Source: Eledone cirrhosa
Taxonomy: Eukaryota
Length of the DNA: 64,000 nt
Assembly (NCBI GenBank): GCA_964016885.1
Contig: OZ024741.1
Coordinates: 50,468,001 to 50,532,000 of the forward strand
Direction: 5' to 3'
The number at the start of each line of letters is the position of its first letter. The stretch's first letter is position 1. A program made the translations under genes and the position numbers. Positions 2,031 to 49,250 of this stretch are shown here, in pieces. The notes below the pieces were generated by a model. That model ran no database searches, had not been told where the DNA came from, and saw only the letters and a list, made by a program, of their open reading frames with translations.

Positions 2031-3113
2031 TTTGTCTAGTAGTCTTTGTTCTTCCCCTCCTTTTCTTCTCATTTATGGCATTTATAGTCATTTCCAATGT
2101 TGCTCTCTTTTTCTGTATGTTTAACCTAATAAATTAGTGTACTATGATGGAAAATTATAGTAGGTCAACTCTGACTGGTGCATTGTTTAGCCCAAAGACA
2201 TCTCTGATCAGGCATACCCAAAAGCATTCTAGCTATTACAACCACACCCTTGTGAGCCAGGGATGATATTATCCAAAGTACCTGTTTTTTTTTAAGAAAG
2301 TAGTGTGGCCTTTCAGGTAGATTTGGCTACCTGAATGTTTGGTAACCACATATAGACTCTTTGAAACTAACAGTGGCATATTGTAATATGGCGTTTTATG
2401 AGAGGTTAGAATTTACCATTGTTGAATATAACATACTTAAGTGGATTAGGGATTAAAGTATTTTAAGAACTGAGAGAAATTATTGGAATGGTATTCATCA
2501 TCATTGTCGTTTTAACGTCCGCTTTCCCTGCTAGCAAGGGTTGGATGGATCCATATAGACCAAGTCAGTACAGAAGTGGAGCCCCTGATCTCCTAGGCAG
2601 GCCAGGTACTTGTGCGCTAATGTACAGTTTCACGTTCCATCATGTGCTGAGGAGAGGTTGTCATGCCTTTGACACAATTGAGGGTCCTCCCAACCCTTTG
2701 TTTGGCAAGATTTCTACAGCTGGATACTCTTCCTATCACTAACCACTTTACAGGGTATTATGAAATAAAATCTTTGGAACTGATCCAGTTAAATTTATCT
2801 GTTGCCAAACCTTTTCTGTTTCTGAATATCTTTCCTACCTTCTTACTGTTAACTGCTCAACTATGAAATAAAAGTGTAACATGTATTTTGTTCAGTCAGA
2901 CAAACTGTGAGAGAAGAGAGTTAGGTTCCTTGCTTAAGAGGCTCATCACACTGAGAGTGGTATGATGTGAACTTATGACCATATGGTTAATAGTTCAATA
3001 CCTTAACACTCCCACCTACTCACACATACATACACTTTGTTTTGATTATAAATATTGTTTGAGGCTAATTACTTTAACTCATATTGTGACCACTTATTAA
3101 ACTTTATTTCCAG

Positions 3114-6100
3114 CCACGAAGATTATGAATTCTCTGAACCATCAGAAAAAGTTCTCCTAATGTCATTGAAGAATTCCTCAGCAGTTAATTCAAAAGTCGA
3201 CAAACAGTCTGAAAATCACTGTAGTTCTTCAACGGTGCATTCACCGCCTTCCTCTGGTGTCTTCAAAAACGTTCCTCCCCGGAAGCAATTAGTGACAGAA
3301 TCTGATGCCCAATTATTGGAATTAGATATCCGTACTGCTCCAGTCAACATTGTGTCGCCAAAAGCTACAAAGATGTCTCCAGACAAATGTTTGAAAAGTC
3401 CAACTCGAAGTCCATTCAAATGTTTATTTAATTCACCTAGTCGTTTGGATCCCCATTACGATAAGTCGTCTCCTTGCAACAAACTGGCCAAAGAGCGAGG
3501 TATTTCAGTGTCAGAGATAACTAACAAGGTAGAACCTTTACTTTCACCATCAAAACCCTTTGAATCCCCAAACAAAATAAAAAGACATATATCAGTCCTA
3601 CAAAATAACACCCTACTTGACTATATTGCCCCTAGTAAATCTTTAAAAAATTCAGAACAGGAAAAACACAAAGCTTATCTGAATAGTCTTCCCCCACAGC
3701 TGGAAAAGTTTCCAATCCTTAAATGTAATAAGGCACCAAAAAGTGAAAAATATGTAGTTGGTGAACAACAAAAAACTGAAAGATCTCCTCCAGTTTTGGA
3801 GAGGTGGGATAAATTAGCAGCAAATTCTTCCACAGAAAACAGTCCAAACAATAATCACGCTGGAGTTCAGATGAAGCGTACTTTTCGTTCATCATCCCAC
3901 AATAAATCACGATCTAAACGTCGGCGTTTATTCAAGCTGGGGGAGAAATGGCAGGTTTTGAGCCAACAGAGTGTGAAGAAAATATTATTTTGTGATGAAT
4001 CACCTGAGTCATTTGTAGGTTTTCACCCACAGGAAATCTTTAAGAATGATTATTCCTCAGATATTTCTTTTGAAACTGTTTCTGAAGTATTTCTTACTGA
4101 CCATTCTGATTTTGAATGGACTCTGGGCAACAGTGATGGCCCTTTCAGTGAGCCATCCTCACAAGCAGCAGGTGCTAGCCAAACATTTGTCCCTCAAGAT
4201 TCAATACGAGAAGGCTACCCTAGCTCTGAACCCTTGGTTCACCACAGTCCAGATATAGGGAAAAAATCCACTCTGTCAGCTCAAGTGCCTAAAGGTGGCA
4301 GCACTTACATTAGTCCTCACACAGGATCTGTTTCAGAGTCAAAACTCACTGCTGTTTCAAATACTCAGCATTCATTTAGTGAAGATTCTCTAGGTAAACC
4401 TGAAACCACAGCATCTGAACTGAATCTTTGTAATGAGCCAGTAAAGAACTCTACAGATGCCAGTTTCCAACACACTACACCAATTACTATACCTGTTCAC
4501 AATTTTCCAAACCCTCTTATCCAAGATATAGAGTTTTCTACACAACTGAATTTTCAAAATCTCGATTCTGTTGCTTCTACCGTATGTAATTTTGATATTG
4601 TAGAAAGTTCTTTCCCTCCATCACTCCCAACTACCTCAGTCAATACTTACAGTGGTCTGCCCTCTACTGACATAGACTGTCTACCCAATTCTGCTGCCAT
4701 TTCAACTGTGCAATCATTTCAAATATTCTCACCATTGTTTTCCTGTGAAAACTCTGAACTCCCTGCCATCCCATCAGTGCCTGATCAGGTTCAACTACCT
4801 CAACAGGTTTCAGAATATAAACCTCCAGAACAAAATATCTCAGTAGACAGTCAGGGGGCTGTAGATTTTCAAAACTGCCTGCCACCTGATTTGCCTAGTG
4901 TGCACAAACAAAGATGTACTACCTCTGCCTCCCTTCAACCTGACGAGGCTCAGCTTCCACTGAATTCTACCGTTATCTATGACCCACTACCTGTATTAAA
5001 CTTTGAAAGTTCATTTAACTTACCTGTGCAAAATTTTGAGATGTTGCCAAGTCTCGTAACTGCTGTTGCAGTAAACACTACATTTTCACCACTGTCTACC
5101 ATACTTACTGCCCCTCTGACTGCTGAAGCAAGTATTTCTCCAGATCTTCCTCTCCAGTCTCAGTGTGACTCTACCCCAGATGATGAACCTGATGACAATG
5201 ATGTGGTGATCATATCTGATACTTCTGTTCCTCTACCAGATTGTTTATCTGATAACAAAGAGGAAACACTTGATGTCAAAAATGCTAATCATCAACATTC
5301 ATCAGTGCAAATGGTAGAGCTAGCATCTTCAAGCCAGTTTGACTCTTCTGCTGGCTCAGAGGCAAATCAATTAACCTCAGAACAACGAGCCATTTCTCCA
5401 GTCGTTGGCTTTGTTTCATTATCCAATTTTGCCACTTCCCGTGTTGAAGATTGTGGATTATCAGGGCGCCATGATATCAGGATTCAACCTTCCATACTTT
5501 CTCATTCCATGGAATCATCATCAAAATCTGCAAAACCTGTTGTACAAAAGTGTAAACCAAATAAAATTCTTTGTGGTTTTGTCACCAGTTGTGAAGACCA
5601 AGGTTCTAAGCAAACCATAGATACTGACCCAATTCCAATAGTAACACAATGTATGTTACTGTCTGATTATAAAAGTTCTCAATATATCAGTGCTTGTTCT
5701 TCAGATTCTCAAACCTCTAATAGTGCAAGTGTTTCAAAGAGTGAAAGTGATACGACTGACTCTTTGGTGAAGCTAACTGTGGAAAACACTGATGCATCAG
5801 ATGAGACCTTGACGACTTCAGACTGGAATGTTTTAAAAAACGACAGCTATGCTGAGATCAAAGACAGTGGTTTTCTCAGCATTGAAGAACTAACACCCAA
5901 AAAATCTCCTTTACTCATTGATTCTAAAAGCAGTGGGTTTTCCAAAAAGTTTGCAAAGCTGGCCAAACCTTGTTCAGTGGTGCTGGAGAAAACAGACTTG
6001 TTTCTAGCTGACAAACAAAACATCTTTTCAGTTAAACGAGCTGACAATACCATTACTAAATCCCCAGAAATGGTTTCAAAACCACGGCTTTTGAAACGTC

Positions 6101-6201
6101 TTTCAGACACACACAAGACTTTTCGATTGGACTATATACATGGCAACACAAATCGCAAATTCTCACCGCGTTCATTTACCCACAAGACACGATGCAAATG
6201 A
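3114..6201 (+). CDS. Large terminal coding exon (~1029 codons) of an unidentified Ser/Pro-rich, probably disordered protein; upstream exons not identified
   Basis: Uninterrupted 1048-codon ORF in AT-rich DNA; polypyrimidine acceptor actttatttccAG ending 3113 (phase 2); stop at 6199-6201; S-P-x-K/R cluster and KRRRLF motif. Confidence 0.85.
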
Positions 6202-7428
6202 TGACTTTTGCAATGTTGGTAGACTGGACAGCAGTATATGGTTAGACAGTGGGCAGTTATGTGTATATTGTATTATGGTTGTTATAATTCTGTATAATTA
6301 TATGTATAGTAATTGACCCAACTACATGCAGACAGAGATAGAGAGAGATTATTCCTTGCATTTTCATCCCAGCTCCCTATTTGTTGTTGGTTTTTACAGA
6401 TAGAGCTGAAGGAACATCTTTATTGCAGTTGTTATACAGCTTTCTTATTCTTACAGTCTCAAGTTTTGCTGTTCTTGAACAATTTAGTACTGTGCTCAAT
6501 ATTCGTTAAATTTGTAATCAACCAAAATAACTGATGTTAGCTATTTAAATATCCCCACAAACACTACTACAGACAGACTACCTCTAGCATGACAGTATTT
6601 AATTCAGCAAACCGTTTTTTTTTTCCATTTTTCTTTTTAAATTACAGTAGCAATGTCAAGGTTTAATACATCCATTACTGGACTTGATGCTTTATCCCAT
6701 TCAGTTTCATATTTGCTCAGTTCTGATAAGATTTATGACATTGTGTTTATAGTTTGTGGAGGTATGGGTTCTTTTCATGGGAATCTCTTATTTGTAAAAT
6801 TGGTTGAGTTGAGAGTCCTGCTTTGTCTGAAATTTCTATCATATATGTTGTAGTAATATGTAACCACAACTGGAGGGAAATATTCTTTTTACTGGAGTAA
6901 TGGGTCAATATTAGCCCTAGAATGGAAACAGATCTACCATTGATGAAGAGAAGTACATTCTCTCACTGAATTAATAAGCCAATGTTAGCCTTGTGTTAGA
7001 AACCACCACTGAAGAGAAAATACATTCTCTCAATAAAGTAACTGGCCTGTTAGGAATATCATTTTCTTATTGATGTAATGGGTAAATTTTATCCCTGTGC
7101 TGAATAGAAGCATTTAGCAGCTCATAAGAAAAACTTCCCACAAAAAATATTAATGGATTGACATTGTTTGTCTTGTATTATAAAATTAATTATTGCTGGG
7201 ATAAAACCCTCTCTTAGAAAAAAATAAAACGGTTGGAACGATAACAATATTGACCTGTTACTAACACCAAGAAGAGCTCTTAGTGCGGAGGTAGATGGAG
7301 CCATGTGTTGTATATCCTGTTAACAAATAAGGGGACAAAACAGGAAGAAAATCATTGCAAAAAAAAAAAAGTTTTAAAAAAAAACTCATCCCAATGTTTG
7401 TGTATTATAATGTATATATAGGTGTGTA

Positions 7429-7434: not shown

Positions 7435-7764
7435 CATGTTCAGTACCTGGTCATTGTTAATATATGAGATGAAACTGGAGTTGGTCTCGTCATTTTAAAC
7501 GAGATGTTTGATTTTTCTTTTATGTGCAAAATTAAATTTATAATTCCTTATGCCTGTTGTTTTTGTTGTTTTTTTGTGGAGGGTTGGGAGTAATTTATAA
7601 AAGTCTCGCTAGTTGCTATTGTGGAGGGTTGGGGGTCATTTATGAAAGTCTCACTATTGATGTTTTTTTTTTGGGGGGGGGGGGGGGTCATTTCTGAAAG
7701 TCTCACTATTGATGTTTTAAAAATCAATTTAGATGTTGGAGTTTTCTTGTGCTCTGTTTAACAA

Positions 7765-7951
7765 TAATTGTTTCTACGTTAGGCACAAGGCCAGCAATTA
7801 TCCAGTGCATTACTGGTACTTTATTTTATCGACCCCGTAAGGATGAAAGGCAAAGTTAACCTCGGCGGCATTTGAACTCAGAATGGCAAGGGCCGTAACT
7901 CTATACGTCAAAGCATGGCGTCCGACCCTCTCCCAATACTACCAATCCACC
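7765..7951 (-). mobile_element. tRNA-headed SINE, family B (MetaSINE-like central domain)
   Basis: B-box GAGTTCAAAT followed by GCCTTTCATCCTTACGGGGTCGATAAAATAAAGTACC and tail GCTGGCCTTGTGCC..AGAAAC; many copies in window. Confidence 0.8.
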
Positions 7952-9242
7952 GTTCTGTTTAACAATGACATTTTATCATCATCATCATCACCGTTTAATG
8001 TCCATTTTTGCACACTAGTGTGGATTAGACAGGTTGCCTCATTGTGAAACAAGCCATGTCTGGTTCATACAGTACTGGTTTTGACTTGGTTTCTATGGCT
8101 GGATGCCCTTCCTAGCACCAACCACGTGTGCTGGGTGCAATTGTTTACGAATTTGGAGGATGTGGGGTACAAACATTATGTATATTAAGCTTACACTTTA
8201 ACCATGTGTTGACAAAATATGAATATAGCAACAGCATGCTTCAGTCAAGAATTTGTCCTTTAGTATTTTCAAAACCCTCAACTGTACTTATTGATCTAGT
8301 ATTTAATAACATATTTTGTAGCTTTACATGAATTTTGTTTATAGTAGGCAAGCATCCCCATGGATGGGCCACCAGTTTGATAAATAAAGTAGCTGACCAG
8401 AAAATATCTCTAGCAGGTTTAGACTCATGAATTAGTGATCTATTGGTGTTTGATTTTCTTGTTTGTGAAGTTGTTCTAATTTTCAGTTGCTAATACCATA
8501 AATACCCAACTTTGTATATTAATATGACTCTTTAAGGAACCATCATTATGATGTGAAAACTAGATTTGGAAGAATTATGATATTTAGTTGCGCCCCTTTA
8601 TATTATAGGTTAACATTCCACTGCAATTGATGAAGTACGAAATGTTCTCCCCTGAAATTTCTTGGAAGGCAGTAACTTTGAAGAGAACTGGCTTGGTCTG
8701 TAATGATATATCCAATCCATACCAACATGGAAAGCAGATAGATATAAAAGGATGAAAGTCAGAGCATAGGACAAGATGCCTTGCAGTACTTGTTCTTCTG
8801 AGGTCAACTTTGCCTTTCATCTTTCCAGGGTTAATAAAATAAAATACCAGCTCAGAACAATGGATTGGTACAATTGTTAGACTATCAGACGAAATGCTTT
8901 GAGTTATTGTTTTGACTCTTTGCATTCTGAATTCAAATCCTGTAGTGGCCTACTAAGGTGATAGACTTAATCAATTGCACGGTCTAACACCACTACCTGG
9001 TTCTTGGGTGTCCTCATTAGAGCCCATATGAGCCTGGTTTGGAGAAACCTGCCATCAGTTACTGATGCTCTGAAAAGTGTCAGGCATTGCCCTTCCCTCA
9101 CCAATATAGTAAAAATTAATATATAACTTTGTGATATTTAGTTAATTCTCCTTAACTTTCTTAGTTCAAATCCTACGATAGTTCACTTCGCCTATAATAT
9201 TTTATGGTTTGATGGAAATCAATAAGGTGATAAAAGCCGACC

Positions 9243-9644
9243 TTACCCAACTACACCTCTCAAAGTCAATGACACACGACCGTGACTTCTGGCGTCACGC
9301 AGTAATACAGGGTACCCGACCTCCCATGGGTACATGCTGAAGCATATAAACAATATGCCCCCCCCCCCCCTCCACCGCAAGGTGGCCGTGGAGGTGCCAC
9401 GGCAAAAAAGCACCCAGCCCACACTGTAAAGTGGACGTGTAGGCGCCACGAAAAAGCACCCAGCACTCACTGTAAATGAGGTTGGTGTTAGGAAGGGCAT
9501 CCAGCTGTAGAAATCAAGCCAGATCAGTTCCTGTATGAGCAAGGCATGGTCAGCCGACCAGACACTGCCCACAACAGGACAACCCGTCTAACCCATGCTA
9601 GCGTGGAAGAACGGACGTAAAACGGTGATGATGATGATGATGAT
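9243..9644 (+). mobile_element. RTE LINE 3' end with (GAT)n tail
   Basis: Near-identical to reverse complement of 41524-41930; ends GGACGTAAAACGGTGATGATGATG. Confidence 0.8.
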
Positions 9645-9989
9645 CTGAAATGCAGATGTATTCTCCATCCTGTCGAGCCAGGACTCAGAGGTGGAGGATA
9701 CTCATTTAGACATCACAAACAATACATACATACTTATGTTATTTCATTTAAATCTCCTTTCCTTCCCTTTTGTTGTAGGATATCGGTTAAATCAAACACA
9801 AATTTGTTGCCTTCCACTTGCAAATCAACTAAAACCAGAAGTCAGACAGATTTTCTCACCAGGAGACATGATAGACATGATTATAAATGGAAATATGTCC
9901 CTAGTGATGAATGTAGCACCTAACATAAATTAGTGCTTATACTAAGAGTTAGACATACCCAGATACATGACAATGATCATCATTTTAAT

Positions 9990-11590
9990 GTGCTAGCAAG
10001 GGCTGGACAATATGGAGAAAAAGATATGAAATCTGAAGAGATAGACCTGGAATGATTGGACAGTTGGGGTTAGGAGAGAACTATACCAAAAATAAGACAA
10101 GATGTCAAGTCTATTTAGCAAAAGGAGAGGCAGATAGGAAAAGGCTGAAAGGTATAAAGTACACCATAGAAAATCATAACGTTGTTGGAGATGTATATAT
10201 GAAAACATAGCAATATGCTTGCTCTTACTAACTCTGAAAAGAAAGAAGCATGGAAGTGTTATTATGAGAGGTTGTTGGAAAGAAAGGGTTTACCACAGGT
10301 AGATCCAACAGATTTGCCATTAAAGTTAACAGCACTATAGTCTCGAGCAATTATGAATATGAAGACAGGGAAAGCAGTTGGTCCATCAGGAATAGTTGCT
10401 GAGAAACTTAAAGCATCATGTGGAGTAAGTTAGTCATTATCAACAGGTAATACAGGAAGGTTGGTGTAGCAGAATCATTGTCAACTACTACAAGGGCAAA
10501 GATGATGAACTAGAGTGAAGTAACTACAGAGGCAACAAACTGCTGCACCAAGGAAAGGGTTATTGCTGAATTGATCAGAAATAGAATAAAAGTAAATCAG
10601 TTGCACTTTAGTTTTATGCCAGGAAGAGGTACCACCATTGAGGCAACTAGCTAGGAATAAGCCCCTATATTTGTTAATCTGGAGAAGGTTTTTACTTTGT
10701 GATATTGTGGGCACTAAGGAAACTAGGGTAGATGAATGACTTGTACAAGGGAGTGTTAGCAAGGTTGAGAGTTTGGAATGTGTACAGTGATGAATTTAGT
10801 CTGCCAGTAGGGGTCCATCAAGGCCCAGTTCTCATCCTCCTATTTATTATAGTCCTTCAGGTCATAGAGGGATTTAAGACAAGTTGTCCACAGGAACTCC
10901 TGTATGTAGACAACCCAAAACTAGAAGAGCCTAAAAGGAAATTCCAGACTAGGAAACAAGACATGGAATCAAAAAGGCCATATAGTAAACTAAGAGAAAA
11001 ACCAAAGTGTTAGTAAGAAGTTAGGTGTCTGATACTATTAGGGAAGTGGATATGGAGAAAAGGTGCAGGCAGGAATTTGATACGTTGTACTCAGTGTAAC
11101 TTAAATTATCAGGCAGACAGATAGAAAAAGTAGGCTTTGTTTGTAAGTAGATGCACTAGAAGAGTTAGCAGTAAGAGCACACAAAACAACTTACTTTGTG
11201 TGCTAGAAGTAGTTGATAAGTTCTGCTATCCAGGTAATCTCATCAGTAGTGGTATTGGGTGTACCAGAAGCACGGTAGCTAGGAAAAATAACAGGGTGGA
11301 ACAAATTTAAGGGGTTGTTACTTTTGTCTCAGAATGAAAGGTATACTATATGACATTTATGTACAAACAATTCTAAATGGTAGTGAGACCCAAGCCTTAA
11401 ATACAGAAGATTTGAAGTGATTGGAAAGAAATTAGGAAAACCCGATTTGCTGGATGTATAATGTTAGCGTGCATGAACGAAAGGAAAATAGATATTAGAA
11501 GACATGAAGTGTGTGGAGGATGTTAGTTGTATAAAGAATTGCAAAGCTGTTGAAATTGATAGAACATAGCAAAGAAGTAGACCTGAAAAG
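9990..11590 (+). mobile_element. Degenerate RTE LINE RT fragment
   Basis: Translates to VGVHQG..LLFIIVLQ..CPQELLYVD RT motifs with many stops and indels. Confidence 0.75.
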
Positions 11591-13829: not shown

Positions 13830-14198
13830 ATGCCATCTGAGATCAGTTCCAAAGGTGCCAAGAAAGCCACCAAGGCTAAATCTTCCCGTTCTGGCGACAA
13901 GAAGACTAAGAGAAAGCGCAAAGAAAGTTACTCTATCTACATCTACAAAGTAATGAAACAAGTGCACCCCGATACGGGTATCTCCAGTAAGGCTATGTCC
14001 ATCATGAACAGCTTCGTTAATGATCTGTTCGAGAGGATTGCCGCTGAATCCAGCCGCTTGGCTCACTACAACAAACGTTCGACCATTAGTAGCCGCGAGG
14101 TGCAGACTGCTGTCCGTCTTCTTCTTCCAGGTGAACTAGCTAAACATGCTGTATCCGAAGGTACCAAGGCTGTTACCAAATATACTAGCAGCAAGTAA
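13830..14198 (+). CDS. H2B: Histone H2B (122 aa, intronless, solitary)
   Basis: Canonical fold [27 protein letters not shown]...[26 protein letters not shown], intact. Confidence 0.98.
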
Positions 14199-29990: not shown

Positions 29991-30775
29991 AACACAGCCC
30001 CAAAATACTTAAACTTCTTTGCCTGCTTCAGTGGAACTCCATTGACATGTAGAGTGCACTGCACAGACTTCTTTGAGAGGACGAGTGTTTCAGTTTTTGT
30101 AGCACTCAGCATCAAACCTATCAAGTGCAAGTCGGAGATCACCTATCGAGTTAAGTAACACTATGTCATCTGCAAACTCCAGCCGATTGATCTTACACCT
30201 CCCACTCGTGATACCACTTCCAACCTGGTTGCTCATGTAATGAACAGGAGAGGTGACAGTAAGCACCCTTGGCAGAGTCAGACTCCCACATTGATTGGTT
30301 TTGATTTAACACCATTTATCCGAACACATACCTGGGCAGCAAGAAGCTGACTATCGGTCCCAAACTCCTGCAAAACCTTCCATAGAAGGTCCTAAGGAAT
30401 GTGGTCATATGCCTTTTCATGGTCTACAAAATAAGAATACACCTCTTCGCAATGCTCCCACAATTTCTTGAAGACCTGCCACAGCGTGAATATATGGTTG
30501 GCTGTGCTACGGGTTTGAGGAAGTACCATACTAGCGACTGGCAAAAATAAGACTACCAAAACTACAATATGATGTGGGGAACTAAAAAGAACATACCGCA
30601 TTGTCCTTCAGGCCTGTTCGAAAAATATATTGTAGTCACCATTTCATGCCACAAAAATTGGCAATAGGCCTGCAACCTGTCCTGGGAGGCATGGGATGGA
30701 GACACAAAGATTGTAGGTCCTGAGACCCCAAAGAGGGTTCGAAATGGAGCAAACCATGACAATTGGAACCCAGAA
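29990..30775. mobile_element. Rearranged LINE piece: minus-strand RT fragment joined to plus-strand 5'-end/endonuclease start
   Basis: Minus: NHIFTLWQVFKKLWEHCEEVYSYFVDHEKAYDHIP; plus: ATGACAATTGGAACC (MTIGT); diverged relative of the segment inside the 988-bp repeat. Confidence 0.6.
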
Positions 30776-31695
30776 TATCACAATCAACATAAATAATTTT
30801 TATTTTATTATATTAATTTTTTTTTTACTGTTTAGTCAGGAAAAACAATGTCCGTGACTCCTCATGACTGCCAAGACTGGTGGGAGGAAAGGATTTTCAA
30901 GATGGAGACCAGCTTTGAATATTTACAAAAGAGTAAACTCCACTAAAGGCATTCAAGAGACTGATAGTGGTATTACACTCATGTAGGCCACAAACTGAGA
31001 AGACATACAACCAGGATAAATATTATAAGACATCATATCCAATATTCTATCAATTCTGCCAGTCTACCACTATGGACTGGTCCTTCATTTCATTGACTCC
31101 AAAAGGATGAAAGGTAAAATTGACCATGGCAGGATCTGACTTTAGAGCACTGAAGCAAACACTGATTCTGCCAAATTCGCTGCCTTTAATTACATTAACT
31201 TCATTCACACAATAAACCAGCCAAGTTGTGATTGTAACAATCACACCTCTTTTGGGAAATTTCAATTGTGGAATCATCTTGTTGTTTGATGAAAGGAATA
31301 GCCTGCTCATAATTTCAACATGCTAGTTGAGCATCCCATAGATATAAGTACTCTCAATGTAATTCTCAGGTAGATTCAGCAGGACAGTTGTGAAACAAAG
31401 CTAGATCTTTGAATTACAGGTATAGCCTGACAGGTTTCCAAACCTGATAAGAGAAAAGCAAACTTCTTAACCATTTAGCAATGCTGCAGCCATTCTTCAG
31501 TTGTACAATAGCATACCATAATTACAAAATACAATGTTTTGAAAAATGTTATAAATAATATTTTTATGTTCCACTCTGTAAATGTGGTTGGTGTTAGGAA
31601 GAGCATCCAGTTGTAAAATACGTGCCAACTCTGCATGGACGACCTGTCTAACACATGCAAGCATGAACAAATGGATGCTAAATGGTGATGATGAT

Positions 31696-31833
31696 GATTG
31701 TTTGAGATGGAACGAAGGAGACAACCATTCACTTCAGGCTGTTTCTCAGATGTTCTCATGTTAATATAGGAAGTTGAAATATTAATAAAAGACAAACAAA
31801 GGAAAAGTCTAAGTCGTCTTTTGAAACTTCCAC
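31696..31833 (-). ncRNA. Candidate box H/ACA snoRNA in EEF1B2 intron 1 (further copies ~32684-32821 and ~33673-33810)
   Basis: Sense strand: hairpin (GGAAGUU/AACUUCC, AAAAGACGA/UUGUCUUUU), ANANNA candidates AUAUUA and AGAACA, second hairpin UGAGA/UCUCA with internal pocket, then ACA; ~136 nt. Confidence 0.3.
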
Positions 31834-33867
31834 AATTTACTACTTCTCTGGATTGATAATTTAGTTTACTTGTTAATAACACACTGCTTCACATGTAGAG
31901 TGCTCTGCGCAGGCTTCCTTGAAAGGACGAATGTCTGTTTTGGCAGCACTGATTTTCATTCCAGCCATGCAACACCCGGCATCAAACCTATCAAGTGCAA
32001 GTTGGAGATTACCTCTCGAGTTAAGTAAAACCATGTTGTTTGCAAATTCCAGTCAACTGATTTTATACCTGCCAGTCATGATAGCACTTCCAACCCCGCT
32101 GTGCATGTAAATATTGGACAGGAGACACGACTGTACACACCTTGGCAGAGTCCTACTTCCATATTAAATGGTTTTGATTTAGCACCATTTATCTGAACAC
32201 CAATACTCAGGCATTTGTAGTGACATCAGGGTAACAAGAAGTTGACCATCGATCCCATACTCCTGCAGAACCTTCCACAGCAGGTCCCGAAGAACAGTCA
32301 TATGCCTTTTTGAGGTAAAACAAGAATATACTCCCGTGATTTCTTAAAGACCTGCCAGTGTGAATATTTGGTAGGCTGTGCTGCGGGTTTGAGAAAGTAC
32401 CAGATTGGTGACTAGCACGAATAAGACCACCAAAACTGCAATATGATGAGAGGTACAGAAAAGAACTATACTGCATTGTCCTTTGCATGGGTTAAGGCCT
32501 TAGGTAGAGGGTGTGTTAAAAAAATATATTGTAGTCACCATTTCATGCCACAAAAACTGACGATAAGCCTGTGATCTGTCCTGGGATGGACACACAAAGC
32601 TTGCATATCCCAAGACTCTAAAGACGGTTCAGAAAGGAGCAAACCATGACAATTGGAACCTGGAAAATGTTTATAAATATTTATATTGTTTGAGATGGAA
32701 CGAAGGAGACAACCATTCACTTCAGGCTGTTTCTCAGATGTTCTCATGTTAATATAGGAAGTTGAAATATTAATAAAAGACAAACAAAGGAAAAGTCTAA
32801 GTCGTCTTTTGAAACTTCCACAATTTACTACTTCTCTGGATTGATAATTTAGTTTACTTGTTAATAACACACTGCTTCACATGTAGAGTGCCCTGCGCAG
32901 GCTTCCTTGAAAGGACGAATGTCTGTTTTGGCAGCACTGATTTTCATTCCAGCCATGCAACACCCGGCATCAAACCTATCAAGTGCAAGTTGAAGATTAC
33001 CTCTCGAGTTAAGTAAAACCATGTTGTTTGCAAATTCCAGTCAACTGATTTTATACCTGCCAGTCATGATAGCACTTCCAACCCCGCTGTGCATGTAAAT
33101 ATTGGACAGGAGACACGACTGTACACACCTTGGCAGAGTCCTACTTCCATATTAAATGGTTTTGATTTAGCACCATTTATCTGAACACCAATACTCAGGC
33201 ATTTGTAGTGACATCAGGGTAACAAGAAGTTGACCATCGATCCCATACTCCTGCAGAACCTTCCACAGCAGGTCCCGAAGAACAGTCATATGCCTTTTTG
33301 AGGTAAAACAAGAATATACTCCCGTGATTTCTTAAAGACCTGCCAGTGTGAATATTTGGTAGGCTGTGCTGCGGGTTTGAGAAAGTACCAGATTGGTGAC
33401 TAGCACGAATAAGACCACCAAAACTGCAATATGATGAGAGGTACAGAAAAGAACTATACTGCATTGTCCTTTGCATGGGTTAAGGCCTTAGGTAGAGGGG
33501 TGTGTTAAAAAAATATATTGTAGTCACCATTTCATGCCACAAAAACTGACGATAAGCCTGTGATCTGTCCTGGGATGGACACACAAAGCTTGCATATCCC
33601 AAGACTCTAAAGACGGTTCAGAAAGGAGCAAACCATGACAATTGGAACCTGGAAAATGTTTATAAATATTTATATTGTTTGAGATGGAACGAAGGAGACA
33701 ACCATTCACTTCAGGCTGTTTCTCAGATGTTCTCATGTTAATATAGGAAGTTGAAATATTAATAAAAGACAAACAAAGGAAAAGTCTAAGTCGTCTTTTG
33801 AAACTTCCACAATTTACTACTTCTCTGGATTGATAATTTAGTTTACTTGTTAATAACACACTGCTTC
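31697..33867. repeat. Tandem direct repeat, unit 988-989 bp, ~2.2 copies, >99% identical
   Basis: Identical ORFs at 32207 and 33195 (offset 988); about 3 differences seen between units. Confidence 0.95.
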
Positions 33868-33898
33868 TCACACAGTAGAAGCAGTGTGTTATTAACAA
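33847..33898. repeat. Perfect 22-bp inverted repeat with 8-nt loop
   Basis: TTGTTAATAACACACTGCTTCT-cacacagt-AGAAGCAGTGTGTTATTAACAA. Confidence 0.95.
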
Positions 33899-36290: not shown

Positions 36291-37195
36291 ACACCCAGTT
36301 CCTAACAATAATGAATTGATTACATGTATGTACTTCTATTTAATCTTATATATTTATTATATGATAATACTCTTCTGTGTAAAAAATATATTTAAAATAT
36401 AAGAGAATGTAGCGGGGAATGAGGGAAGGGTACGAAGAAAGGAAAATAAAGAGAACATAGGATTATCGCGTTGAATGAAAGAAAAAGAAAGAGGAAAAAA
36501 GCAGAAAGAAAACGGGAAATATTAATTTTTAAAAAATGAAAAAGCAGTAAGTAATAAGAACTTTTAGGCGATATCCAATTTTAGCGGCCTAAATGCCGCT
36601 TACTTGCTGTAGTTGCTGCTTACTTCAATGTATGAGGCTATTCCAACAAATTTACATTCCCCTTTCTTTAGCCGTTAAAAGAAATATAAATTTATTTATT
36701 GGTTTTTTTTTGCGATTTATTTGCCACTGGGGCATAGATTTCTTTATTTGCCCCTTTTTTGTTTGTTTGCGATTTATTAGCCTTTTGGGGTCACACAGCC
36801 CCGTAGAAAGTGTGCGACCTTTCTGCCAGGGAGCACAGAGAGAGGGGGGTTCTCCCTTCTCTTACCTGTACAAGCCGATATAGAGAGATGGCCCACTTAC
36901 ACGGGCCATTATTGCTACTTTCACCCATCTTTCATGGAATTGGCTGGGACTGAGTGCCTTTTTCTCCACCTTGATCCTTCTTTCGAAGTGGTATCGGAAG
37001 AAGAGGACCATTTGTTGGCCGGCAACATATCCCCACAGTTTCCTCGTTGCAAACGCATCTGGGACATTTCTTTTCCAAGGGGTTTCCGTCTCGGAATCCG
37101 TGTCTGTAGAGCCTTTCCCGAACGGGCAGGGCCCCTCGGTATAATAGTAAGTATTAGTGGTTGTAATAAAAATGCAATCAAAATGTAATAAATAC

Positions 37196-37331
37196 CTTCA
37201 CTGATTTCTTTCCTTATATTATCAACAGAAGTTGGTATGTCACCCAAAGTTCGCTTTGTATGTTCCCGAATAGCAGTGAATTTTGATAAAACTGTTTCTA
37301 ATTCCTTCTCCACAGTAAGACAAATATCCAT
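37196..37331 (-). pseudogene. RMND5: Inverted copy of RMND5-like first coding exon
   Basis: Same translation as 37505-37640 with the same donor; no downstream RMND5 exons seen before the EEF1B2 promoter. Confidence 0.7.
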
Positions 37332-37504
37332 GTGTAGTTGAAGAGGATAAGTATGAAAGAACAGTCATTTAAATTTACAGATGGACAGATGTGGTGTTTG
37401 GCAGGGTTTGAGATATATAGAAAAATAATTATTTACAGAAAAAGAAAATAATAATAAAGATTTATTATAATTTTTTTAAAGATTTATATCTTTTTGGACT
37501 ACAC

Positions 37505-37640
37505 ATGGATATTTGTCTTACTGTGGAGAAGGAATTAGAAACAGTTTTATCAAAATTCACTGCTATTCGGGAACATACAAAGCGAACTTTGGGTGACATA
37601 CCAACTTCTGTTGATAATATAAGGAAAGAAATCAGTGAAG
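37505..37640 (+). CDS. RMND5: RMND5-like (GID/CTLH E3 ligase subunit) first coding exon; functional gene or captured fragment
   Basis: MDICLTVEKELETVLSKF...IRKEISE resembles recalled RMND5A N-terminus (MDQCVTVERELEKVLHKF); ends GAAG|gtattt; later exons not found. Confidence 0.7.
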
Positions 37641-37693
37641 GTATTTATTACATTTTGATTGCATTTTTATTACAACCACTAATATTTACTATT

Positions 37694-38150
37694 ATACCGA
37701 GGGGCCCTGCCCGTTCGGGAAAGGCTCTACAGACACGGATTCCGAGACGGAAACCCCTTGGAAAAGAAATGTCCCAGATGCGTTTGCAACGAGGAAACTG
37801 TGGGGATATGTCGCCGGCCAACAAATGGTCCTCTTCTTCCGATACCACTTCGAAAGAAGGATCAAGGTGGAGAAAAAGGCACTCAGTCCCAGCCAATTCC
37901 ATGAAAGATGGGTGAAAATAGCAATAATGGCCCGTGTAAGTGGGCCATCTCTCTATATCGGCTTGTACAGGTAAGAGAAGAAGGGAGAACCCCCCACTCT
38001 CTGTGCTCCCTGGCAGAAAGGTCGCACACTTTCTACGGGGGTGTGTGTGACCCCAAAAGGCTAATAAATCGCAAAAAAACAAACAAACAAAAAAGGGGCA
38101 AATAAAGAAATCTATGCCCCAGTGGCAAATAAATCGCAAAAAAAAAACAA
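37694..38150 (+). mobile_element. Tx1/L1-type LINE 3' end inside the foldback arm (mirror copy ~36695-37142)
   Basis: YRGALPVRERLYRHG..KCPRCVCNEETV zinc-knuckle-like motif and FRYHFERRIKVEKK..FHERWVK terminus, then AATAAA plus A-rich tail. Confidence 0.65.
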
Positions 38151-38743
38151 TAAATAAATCTATATTTCTTTTAACGGCTAAAAAAAGGGGCATGTAAATT
38201 TGTTGGAATAGCCTCATACAGCAAGTAAGCGGCATTTAGGCCGCTAAAATTGGATATCGCCCAGAACTGTTTCTGGCTTGGTTTCTACGATTGGATGCCC
38301 TTTCTAACGCCAACTACATTTACAGTGTGGGTGGAGTGTTAGGGCATGGGATGTGTATGAAAGGGGGAGGAAGGATAGGGGCTAAGTGGTGCATACTGTT
38401 ATACATGCATATATATAACTAAATATTAAATTCTTTATTATTTTTATGTAATTTTATTTGAAATAAAATAATTTGACTTAAAAACAAAAAATAGCTTTGC
38501 TTCACTTCAGAAAAGTTACAATTGCTAATGTTCAATATAACATTGTTCAATCTGCCTCTATGGAGTGGTCACTTCTATATTGTTGGGAAAATCCTTTTAA
38601 AAAGTGCAAGGTTTAATCAAACAGAGTGTGTGTTTGTTGGCAAAATCTAACAGTAGCTGAATCTTTGTATGATGAGCAAACAGGCAAATATGTTGCAGAT
38701 CCTTTAGGCCAGAATCACAGTTATCCTTTATAACGATTGTTTG

Positions 38744-39361: not shown

Positions 39362-39822
39362 ACAGGGTGACGCAAATGTCATGCTCCAGTAAAATAATGC
39401 TTTGCCATAATATCTTCATATTTGTTATTTTTGTAAGTAAATATCATAAATGTTCATAAAATGATGATTATTTTAATTTTAGAGCTATGTCAGAGAAGTT
39501 ATCAATAGATGAACGTGTTGAAGTTATCTTTTTGTGTGGTACAGTTGGAAGCTCTAATCGATCAGTTGCACAGCAGTTTAATAACCTTCATCCTGATAGG
39601 ACACCTATTGATCAGTCAACAGTTGGAAGGTTGTTAAAAAGGTTTAAAGAAACGGGAAGTGTCCATGATCGAGAACGTAGTGGTAGACCAAGAACAGCAA
39701 CAGATGAGGTCACTACAACAACTGTACTTAGTCATCTTCAACAGAGCCCAATAAAATCAACAAGAAAACTATCTCAAGAAACTGGTGTCAGCAGACGTTC
39801 GGTTCAGCGTATTTTAAAATAA
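39362..39822 (+). mobile_element. Tc1/mariner transposase N-terminal HTH fragment (truncated)
   Basis: ORF 39487-39822 ..STVGRLLKRFKETGSVHDRERSGRPR..SPIKSTRKLSQETGVSRRSVQRILK; CAGGGTG terminus-like motif upstream; no DDE domain. Confidence 0.8.
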
Positions 39823-40642
39823 AAGATTATTGTCTCTCTCTTATATAATGTTTGTATTTTTTACGTGATTAGGGTGGTACGGGTCTTTTGCACCACACTG
39901 TATATATCATTGTTTTGTTGTTTTTTATGTCCGTTTTTCCACGTTTGCATGGGTTGGACGAGTCCTTTTCAGCACAGCGTTTCTCCACTCACCATGTTTC
40001 TTCATATCTGTGAATCTCAGCAATGTGTAGTCAGCTCCCAGCATCTCTTGTTTTAAAAATTGGGTGATATTTACTGATGTCGAGATAAAACATTTCTAGG
40101 GAGCAACTATTTGGGTGAAAAATAAAGTTCCTATCTATCTATTTAGGGCGGGTAAAATCCCGAGATCCATGGATAAGTTCTCCAGTGATCTCTGTCCTTC
40201 ATCATCGTCGCCATGTCCTGCGCCTCCCAGAGACTAGTGTTTGTCCTTAGGGCATCAATATATGTCATCCTCTGTCTTCTTTTAGTGTGTCCATATACTG
40301 TTAAACACTAAAAATATATTGTTTCCTCTGTGTGTCAAAGGTCAGACCTTTCTGAACCTGAGGTTGATTCTCTAGTTGGATTTTGATTTATTTGTGCATC
40401 TCATTTTCCTTTTCTACTTATCTCCCTTTCACACACCTGATTACATTCTATCCTTACACTAATGGGACTGTGGACAAACAAAGGACAGTTATCTATCCCA
40501 CTTGGTTAGTCCAATTGACATTTGTCAGCAAAGAGAAATTAGAAAGTACACTGGTATTGATATATGATAAATATTGATGGAATGTCAATCAATTCCAGTG
40601 GAAGGAAGTTACAGAAGGGGGAGACCAAAGAAAACAAGCTGA

Positions 40643-41050
40643 AGTGATGAGAGGTGATCTCAAATTACTGTTCCTAAGTAAATAGTGAGAGGTAATATCA
40701 AATTGTTGAACCCAAGTAATTGATGAGAGGTGATCTCAAATTGTTGAGCCCATGTAAGAAGTGAGAGAGGATCTCAAATTGCTGAACCCATTTAAGGGGT
40801 GAGAGGTGATCTCAAATTGTTGAACCCATGTAAGTGGTGGGAGGTGCTCTCAAATTGTTGAACCCATGTAAGTGGTGGGAGGTGATCTCAAATTATTGAA
40901 CCTATGTAAATAGTGAGAGAGGATCTCAAATTGTTGAAAGTAGTGAGAGACGATCTCAAATTGTTGAACCTAAGTAAGTGTTGAGAGGTGATTTCAAATT
41001 TGTTGAACCCATGTAAATGGTGAGAGGTGATCTCAAATTGCTGATCCCAT
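40643..41050 (+). repeat. 38-bp minisatellite, ~10 copies
   Basis: Unit ~GAGAGGTGATCTCAAATTGTTGAACCCATGTAAGTGGT. Confidence 0.9.
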
Positions 41051-41117
41051 ATGAGCATGGAAAAACATTCAGACATAAATAAATTGGTGATGGATAGATG
41101 GATGTGTGTACACCATT

Positions 41118-47564: not shown

Positions 47565-49250
47565 ATCCACATACATTGGTCCTTGAACAATATGCAGACA
47601 TAAATAAAAACAGTTTCTGTTGTTGGGATGGATATTGTAAACATGCCCAATAGTATCACTTACCTTGACTTCATGACCCTCCTTCATTTGATTTCAGTTC
47701 TTGCAATTCATCCAGGTGTAGTATGTTGGGATGTCAGCATACAGGAGGGATCGAGCAAATTCATCAGTCTGGCAGAGTTTAAAAAAAGCAGTTAGTGTAG
47801 TGTCATATGATGTTTGTGCCAACTGATGAGCAGTGGTCTCAGTGAAGTACATTCTCTGTCCATTTTCTAGATGGACTGCTTGGTTGACCACTGTTGGGTA
47901 GCATTGGTGGATATCAAATCCAAAGATCCGTCAGATAGCTTTATTGCTGGAGATGTATCGACCTGTCTAATACCATTTGACCTCATCCAGTTCACCATCA
48001 TTGAGTTCCTTGTCAGTAGCCATGTCACTGCCCTTGTTGATATATTTTGTGACATATAGTATTGCTTTGACAGAGCTGCAATACTCAACATTGATATGAG
48101 TTTTTAGAAGTTTACACAACAATTTGTTGTGTGGGACTACCCATCGACTGTCTATGGTCAGCTCCTCTCCTTGAACTGTTAGATTTGTAGTACTGCCTCC
48201 ATGTTCTGGCCTACGACTACAATAAAAGGTGTACCCATCATTGTCAGTCCGAGTTTCCTGATTAAAAGCTCTAGAATATAACGTTTGCTGGATTTTTGAT
48301 CTTTCATGCAGGGAGAGGCTGAATTGATGACTCCACGTGGACCATAGATGGTCTTGATGGATTCAAAGAGCTCTAAATCACCATCTTTATCAGGCAATTC
48401 TGCTGAAATGATTTTATCAACATCATCTGGCTTTTTTTTCTCCTTGCAACAGATTAGTGTGTGAGAGTGTGGAAGTCCTCTCTTCTGCGATTCAATAGTG
48501 GTTATCCATGCAATAAGCTCACCAAAGATTCTTCCTTCTTTTAGGAACCAGGAGATTTTTTTTTTTTTTTGCTTTTCATGGAAAACCCAAGCAATGAGAT
48601 CATGTTGATCCTTCGGTTTTTGATTTTGAAATAATTCATTTGATATTTGAGTTGCATGTAAATGTAATGAAGAGATTTGGCTGACCTAATTTTCTGACAT
48701 AGGCCATTGCATCTTGCATACATTCATGCATGTAACAAGGTCCTCCCATGAAGCTTGATGGCAGTATGACTGGCTGGCCAATACTTCTTGAGTCACCATC
48801 AGAATTGATGGCATCTCTAAGGTGGATGTAGTTCTCTACCCTCAACTTATTTTGATTCTTTCAATTTCATATATGTACACCATGAACTGGTTGGTTATTT
48901 CTTTGAATCACAGAACTTGGTTGAAGTGATCCCGTACCATGAAATGATAAGCATAGAATTCTTTGCAGTTGATTGATCGACCAGTTTCTTGTCATGTTCC
49001 TAGGTTGATCTGCTGTAGCTGAAAATGATATTTATCTTAATCATTCCAGAAGATGAGCAGATATTGGAGTGAGTCATAGGCCCTGAGTTTCACATATTCG
49101 TTCTAAATGTCCACTTTGTTTCTGCAAAACAATGTCACATTGTTCATGCTCTTCATCAACGATTATAATTGCAACTTCATCAGTGACAGATGCATTGAAC
49201 ATGTGTTCATGTTCTGCAATATGTAATTTTGTGGGTGTCCGTATGCTAGC
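47565..49250 (-). mobile_element. Decayed Helitron Rep/helicase coding fragment
   Basis: VILPSSFMGGPCYM..QDAMAYVRKLGQPNLFITFTCN, TIESQKRGLPHSH (HUH motif), AVHLENGQ. Confidence 0.9.

Follow-up and report, generated by a model that had tools for sequence, protein, structure and literature searches.

Animal Pack-TIRs carry a piece of a host gene within terminal inverted repeats (TIRs), and 370 of them were described in 100 reference genomes, with four multicopy cases (1.4%) in addition to Ssk-FB4 (PMC8277862). A frog example and the fly Pack-MULE Ssk-FB4 are each present at three loci with the cargo between the TIRs, and Ssk-FB4 itself possesses TIRs of ~700 bp and target-site duplications (TSDs) of 9-10 bp (PMC8277862). 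The words octopus and mollus- are absent from the main text of this article. In the 2RT copies of Galileo in Drosophila mojavensis, which are non-autonomous, internal sequence beside one TIR was copied in inverted orientation beside the other and lengthens the TIR (TIR1-F1-F1-TIR2); Galileo is a P-superfamily element, has 7-bp TSDs and recruits its own DNA (PMC3573991). The tomato Pack-MULE PM-ZIBP is multicopy (14 copies), with a derived form of altered TIR that outnumbers the ancestral one; its TIR is tandemly doubled and its gene fragment single (PMC3310237).

Here, we analyzed a palindromic locus in a stretch of 64,000 nucleotides of genomic DNA (hereafter the window), previously described in a sequence-only reading as a gene-capturing foldback transposon whose TIR has absorbed the cargo. 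We consider this locus, with a probability of roughly 70%, as a non-autonomous cut-and-paste TIR transposon (Pack-TIR), the TIRs of which absorbed the cargo. It resembles Ssk-FB4 and the other animal Pack-TIRs by a host gene piece within inverted ends and by its likely presence at several loci. Unlike them, however, it bears the cargo in both arms, fused to a LINE end, and with ~40 and ~12 copies by depth in two likely octopod species it would far exceed the animal gene-capturing DNA transposons, mostly single-copy accidents (PMC8277862). The arrangement is shared with the Galileo 2RT copies, except that a host coding exon is involved here, and the multicopy state with a prevailing, likely derived form would be shared with PM-ZIBP. 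An animal Pack-MULE by itself is already known (Ssk-FB4, PMC8277862); the mirrored cargo and the high copy number are the new part. We found no report of a host exon in both arms of a transposon in the literature searched, outside which most subscription papers lie.

Structure of the palindromic element

As presented in Table 1, the element has a total size of ~1.7 kb, with inverted arms of ~775 bp each. The arms (36567-37349 and, inverted, 37487-38261) were aligned in 796 columns, of which 749 are identical, 13 are mismatched and 34 contain a gap. This bears out the two ~770-bp inverted arms around a 159-bp AT-rich spacer that had been recognized from the sequence alone. The ragged innermost 12 bp of the arms contains 4 of the 13 mismatches, and outside this centre 9 substitutions and 4 indels separate one arm from the other. 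The clean arm starts are at 37338 and 37498, and the 159 bp between them have a GC content of 23%. From the centre outward, each arm consists of a 136-nt ATG exon, a GT donor and AT-rich sequence (54 nt), a 277-nt LINE-like ORF end, a UTR-like stretch and the terminus, the element ends carrying GGCGATATCC. Neither a second copy of the element nor a second terminus was found within the 64-kb window. The whole element folded as RNA gave a near-perfect predicted hairpin with 94% of the bases paired, a trivial consequence of the palindrome, and the folding of the terminus was not better than that of shuffled sequence (z -0.65).

Table 1. Features of the element and of its flanks, in positions of the window.
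Feature	Position	Strand	Basis or remark
Candidate 9-bp TSD, left copy	36557..36565	+	8/9 match with 38263-38271; chance 0.08-1.25%
Left terminus, likely original TIR, ~100-135 bp	36566..36702	+	arm alignment and depth; inner edge between 36666 and 36702
Left-arm UTR-like stretch, AATAAA and A-runs	36703..36864	-	mirror of 37972-38147; putatively the LINE's own tail
Left-arm LINE ORF2 C-terminal piece, 5'-truncated, likely internally deleted	36865..37141	-	Tx1-like by presumed motif; frame continues upstream
Left-arm splice donor GT, 8 nt of parent intron, ~46 nt of AT-rich filler	37142..37195	-	organism B contig
Left-arm copy of the RMND5 first coding exon, decayed (45 codons from the ATG, phase-1 donor)	37196..37331	-	homology searches; 6/129 differences from likely parent mRNA contig
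159-bp spacer	37339..37497	.	minus-strand reading is parent sequence upstream of ATG to at least 37379
Right-arm RMND5 exon, second copy, same sequence as left copy	37505..37640	+	arm alignment
Right-arm donor and filler	37641..37694	+	arm alignment
Right-arm LINE ORF2 C-terminal piece, stop at end	37695..37971	+	arm alignment
Right-arm UTR-like stretch	37972..38147	+	AATAAA at 38063, 38101 and 38128; A10 run at 38138
Right terminus, likely original TIR	38148..38262	-	starts GGGCGATATCC; short motif TTTTAGC twice
Candidate TSD, right copy	38263..38271	+	a ~75-bp internal portion of a common RTE-tail/SINE-like repeat also starts here

Termini, flanks and superfamily

The flanks of this one insertion site, AGAACTTTT and AGAACTGTT, are identical at 8 of 9 positions, confirming the match noticed earlier; by chance, such a match was obtained in 154 of 200,000 random window pairs under the strict definition and in 625 of 50,000 under the loosest one. 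The right flank had also been described as the start of a SINE-tail fragment, and rightly so: the internal piece that starts there belongs to a repeat with 15 other matches in the window. In those copies, the piece follows sequence that is missing from the left flank. The right flank is the broken edge of a SINE-like piece, which counts against a true TSD. The SINE-like repeats of the window presumably resemble octopus repeats. At the TSD register, the right end reads GG and the left end AG. A Helitron, judged by the end and flank features of these elements, was ruled out, both ends here being the same end and the flanks a direct repeat.

The TSDs of MULE/Mutator elements measure 8-11 bp (PMC6446971), whereas Merlin elements exhibit 8-9-bp TSDs, 5'-GG ends and TIRs of 24-462 bp (PMC8101967). 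With its 9-bp candidate TSD and its long TIR (~775-bp arms, high-copy terminal ~100-135 bp), the element may be a MULE (PMC6446971); Merlin fits too, with the candidate TSD at one site and GG at the right end, but AG at the left end (PMC8101967). Among the recently active families of O. vulgaris, 2 are Merlin and 21 Mutator (PMC13282606, Table 1). The sequence-only reading was sustained as regards a multicopy, gene-capturing element with inverted ends and the cargo in the arms. The element does not show the composite tandem-repeat TIRs of classic Foldback elements (FB/Tm1/Galileo-like; PMC3169594): the internal repetition of the terminus amounts to one degenerate duplication of ~20 nt (21 nt in the left terminus, absent from the right end) and a 7-mer present twice, and the length of the arms is due to the cargo.

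The RMND5 exon and its likely parent

The exon comprises 45 codons and one base, followed by GT, in both arms. Its 45-aa peptide gave a weak match to residues 1-42 of human RMND5A in PDB (E 0.036), and 59 of the 62 phmmer matches at E<=0.001 aligned to it with their N-terminal exon part, P0005, P0007 and P0011 being left out as repetitive. P0052, one of the phmmer matches, itself hits RMND5A at E 2.8e-24. The homology is therefore to the N-terminal exon of RMND5/Gid2, the sole RMND5 exon present, and no further one was found within the 64-kb window. Of the 45 residues, 6 distinguish the exon peptide from the closest protein, P0004; at 5 of these 6, another close relative, P0006, has the state of P0004.

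A 1435-nt contig of run X4, identical to the exon at 123 of 129 bases, departs from the alignment exactly at the donor and is therefore likely the parent mRNA. X4 appears to be RNA, given its small assembly and a unique flank without depth. Five of the six differing bases are displayed, all of them amino-acid changing, with the parent giving the residues of P0004. The cargo exon is therefore decayed relative to its parent. Positive selection on the exon is unsupported, five amino-acid changes out of five having a neutral probability of 0.29. The cargo, with 123 of 129 bases shared, agrees with the definition of Pack-TIR cargo as 100-5000 bp with at least 90% parent identity (PMC8277862). Taken together, the phmmer matches, the link from P0052 to RMND5A and the parent mRNA contig uphold the RMND5-like ATG exon with its splice donor that had been proposed for both arms, and dispose of the concern that the peptide might fail to match RMND5.

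In organism B, the likely parent gene is represented by a contig whose alignment lies on the left-arm side, beginning 8 nt into the intron and reaching 48 nt beyond the ATG in the upstream direction, indicating that the left arm and the spacer are the native orientation. The ~55 nt of intron-like sequence reported for each arm holds as to the 54 nt that follow the exon, but matches the parent intron for just 8 nt past the donor. Word-index protein searches with the exon peptide (9 candidates) and with the 136-aa read-through ORF (11 candidates) gave no match at E<=0.001, both being weak blanks, and neither the exon peptide nor the read-through ORFs occur in the exact-sequence collection (0 of 3). 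The RMND5 cargo is most likely a passenger.

The LINE-like piece

On the basis of its motif, the LINE piece may be a Tx1-type ORF2 C-terminal region (zinc-knuckle region). It gave no match in Pfam, PDB, the protein database or the Atlas, and nothing at E<=0.001 in the word-index protein search (3 candidates; a weak blank). Depth in the LINE bins of organism A ranged from 7,400 to 50,700, and a loose end at 37141 extends the LINE frame in-frame upstream. The LINE 3' end proposed for the arms thus stands on its very high depth and its upstream continuation, but the Tx1 label has no database match behind it. Judged by the presumed Tx1 layout, the piece appears to be internally deleted. Further searches returned two chance matches in Rfam, both on a TA repeat, no usable match in the Atlas and, for a 23-mer of the terminus, 0 matches in metagenome contigs.

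Copy number and reality of the palindrome

We compared the contigs of four of the nine listed runs (X1, X4, X5 and X6, leaving X2, X3 and X7-X9 aside) with the left flank, the left arm and the spacer. X1 represents organism A, possibly the assembly's own sample, X5 organism B and X6 organism C, and these three runs come from three studies. In X1, the contig of exon and filler (37141-37338, 0 differences) had a depth of 798.8 and the contig spanning both LINE junctions a depth of 712.4, compared to 12.3 for the unique flank contigs (65x and 58x, respectively), and the summed depth of the spacer at 37418 was 497 (40x). Organism A therefore likely holds ~65 arms and ~40 elements by depth, rough figures given that contig depth is no copy number, and to be halved if 12.3 is one allele. 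In organism C, the contig over exon and spacer (37222-37468) had a depth of 250 against a reference of ~20 (repeat-bearing contigs with long unique parts), which suggests ~12 copies, again roughly.

The terminus was several-fold deeper than the cargo in both organisms, as expected of a TIR common to a larger family: its depths, inflated as sums over overlapping contigs, were 7,600-10,300 in organism A (36610-36666), whereas those of organism C were 5,100-6,600 at 36662-36666, down to 225 at 36702. In organism B, the terminus had no cover, a gap that carries no weight. These depths speak against single-copy termini, which would have undermined the sequence-only reading. By contrast, the flank bin 36405-36469 had a depth of 1.06 in X1, and the flanking DNA is thus outside the amplified unit. 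Organism C seems to possess the left flank as well.

A local inverted duplication had been retained as the alternative. It would have arisen once, by fold-back, at the RMND5 locus itself or at a duplicate of that locus, and the 8/9 match of the flanks would be due to chance. The imperfect central match and the short spacer fit fold-back priming, and the right junction truncates a SINE-like piece; but with cargo junctions at 58-65x, no other RMND5 exon in the window and an exon that differs from the likely parent mRNA, we regard it as very improbable. Alternatively, a palindrome that formed once may have been multiplied passively, as part of a tandem array, of a segmental duplication or of a larger carrier element. 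Depth gives copy number and not dispersal, which agrees with such a scenario, but a single-copy flank adjoins this copy (12.3, then 1.06 in the next bin), a candidate TSD is present here and the 64-kb window contains no second copy, making passive amplification an unlikely explanation.

The palindrome itself was recovered from the contigs: in both X1 and X5, 37338 is the exact end of the arm contigs, and a 219-nt contig of X5 is made of 30 arm letters, the 159 spacer letters and 30 arm letters, corresponding to the palindrome centre. The left arm has the non-majority base at all 5 of the 5 arm differences with listed read variants, as a fold-back assembly artefact could leave, and some left-arm differences may indeed be assembly errors. 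However, the centre contig comes from another study and another organism, two runs show a branching of the arm contigs at 37338, and the arms differ by the substitutions and indels counted above outside the ragged centre. The artefact against which caution had been advised is therefore hardly credible.

Two pairs of arm positions share a base unlike the X1 majority, 37091/37745 (712 of 712 depth) and 36851/37988 (882 of 1068), hinting at arm-to-arm homogenisation or at a subfamily; organism C has the base of the window at 37091. The element contigs of organism B, over 36663-37497, showed 0 of 142 and 1 of 189 differences from the organism A majority, while 19 of 192 bases distinguish its likely parent RMND5 from the element, and its SINE consensus is different too. 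This near-identity may stem from contamination, from a very recent transfer or from descent of the elements from one ancestral copy.

Mirrored and probable single-cargo forms

In organism C, one contig crosses 37338 unbroken, with a depth of 10-15x over arm and spacer alike and 19x at 37461. In organism A, the ratio of arm depth to spacer depth at 37418 was 1.4-1.6 and not 2. From these contig breaks and depths, organism C would mostly hold a single-cargo form. As the cargo is seemingly present once per element in organism C, the mirrored form is likely derived. The arms differ from each other at 4 of 115 positions in their outer part and at 3 of 478 in their inner part (p 0.03, weakening to p 0.08 if the middle region is included), in agreement with an old TIR and a younger, copied interior. 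The arm copying would have stopped 7 nt upstream of the ATG, at a match that is short and imperfect.

One unit per locus in organism C would also fit a LINE-mobilised chimeric retroelement, made of an RMND5 head and a LINE tail and inserted site-specifically in a common ~120-bp repeat, the present locus being a head-to-head pair. Host-sense sequence, LINE 3' end and A-rich tail share one orientation in each arm, as this explanation demands, and target-specific insertion of Tx1L into the DNA transposon Tx1D offers a precedent. Nevertheless, the depth in organism C shows no drop toward the 5' end (10-19x), and such an element would explain neither the paired inverted termini, flanked as they are by a 9-bp duplication, nor the ~40x palindrome centre in organism A. 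We consider such a retroelement quite unlikely.

Proposed origin and spread

In the preferred reading of a non-autonomous TIR transposon, a host-sense RMND5 piece, joined to the 3' end of a LINE and to an A-rich tail, would first have come to lie beside one end of a common TIR element. Since these three parts are all in one orientation, template switching of the LINE reverse transcriptase onto unspliced RMND5 RNA would be the best-fitting loading route, such a one-orientation chimera being the signature of LINE template switching. Capture by gap repair is the alternative, and we rate template switching as roughly as probable as gap repair and the remaining routes together. It is possible, then, that a LINE rather than gap repair loaded cargo into a DNA transposon. 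The exon then decayed relative to its parent, as the sequence differences show, and the single-cargo form would have spread, organism C seeming to keep it. Subsequently, one arm may have replaced the other through copying during repair, by which the TIR would have reached ~775 bp in the manner of the Galileo TIR1-F1-F1-TIR2 arrangement (PMC3573991). Finally, the mirrored form would have spread in organism A, where copy number is high by depth and transposition its presumed cause, with a transposase acting in trans that would bind the ~100-135-bp ends and move the element. As the single-cargo and mirrored stages are apparently both kept, the extension of a TIR over host DNA can be tested by comparing copies.

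In its furthest form, the proposal is of a cephalopod transposon family that turned a host E3-ligase exon into its own terminal repeats, amplified to dozens of copies, left a single-cargo ancestor in a sister species, seeds chimeric transcripts and could regulate the parent gene; we consider this whole chain rather unlikely. If true, each copy would present, toward either side, a start codon and a splice donor that face outward, a read-through transcript would fold to ~770 bp of dsRNA, 95% identical to RMND5 over the exon, and the family could regulate the parent gene via small RNAs or editing.

Transcription

In X4, the element-type contigs had a depth of 31.5 compared to 99.5 for the parent contig, about a third. 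The ratio of X4 to X1 depth was 0.036-0.039 for the element-type contigs and 0.014-0.026 for an unrelated flank repeat, a ~2x difference that may reflect passive read-through or DNA carry-over rather than specific transcription of the element. The element-type exon contig of X4 ends exactly at the donor, which is a hint of splicing; a contig of X5 also ends 1 base away. Two A-to-I-like differences in the X4 contig are also present in the DNA of organism C and provide no evidence of RNA editing.

Other features of the window

Other mobile-element sequences were observed in the window. At 39460-39822 (+), 1.2 kb from the element, we observed a helix-turn-helix frame typical of the N-terminus of Tc1/mariner-like transposases, for which no link to the element was found, and at 47967-48685 (-) a Helitron Rep fragment (PF14214, E 3e-12). 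Probably a large exon, the open frame at 3052-6201 (+) encodes 1049 aa rich in Ser and Pro and has no Pfam match. A lone intact histone H2B gene lies beside a TA repeat at 13830-14198 (+); its protein clusters with one of Argonauta hians and, like the SINE-like repeats, points to an octopod cephalopod as the likely source of the window. By eye, no canonical histone stem-loop was seen just downstream, and it is possibly an orphan copy. A 38-bp minisatellite of ~11 copies occupies 40604-41055. Finally, 31697-33870 is a recent tandem duplication with a 988-bp period and 99.7% identity, and an older copy, 72% identical, is located at 30042-30778.
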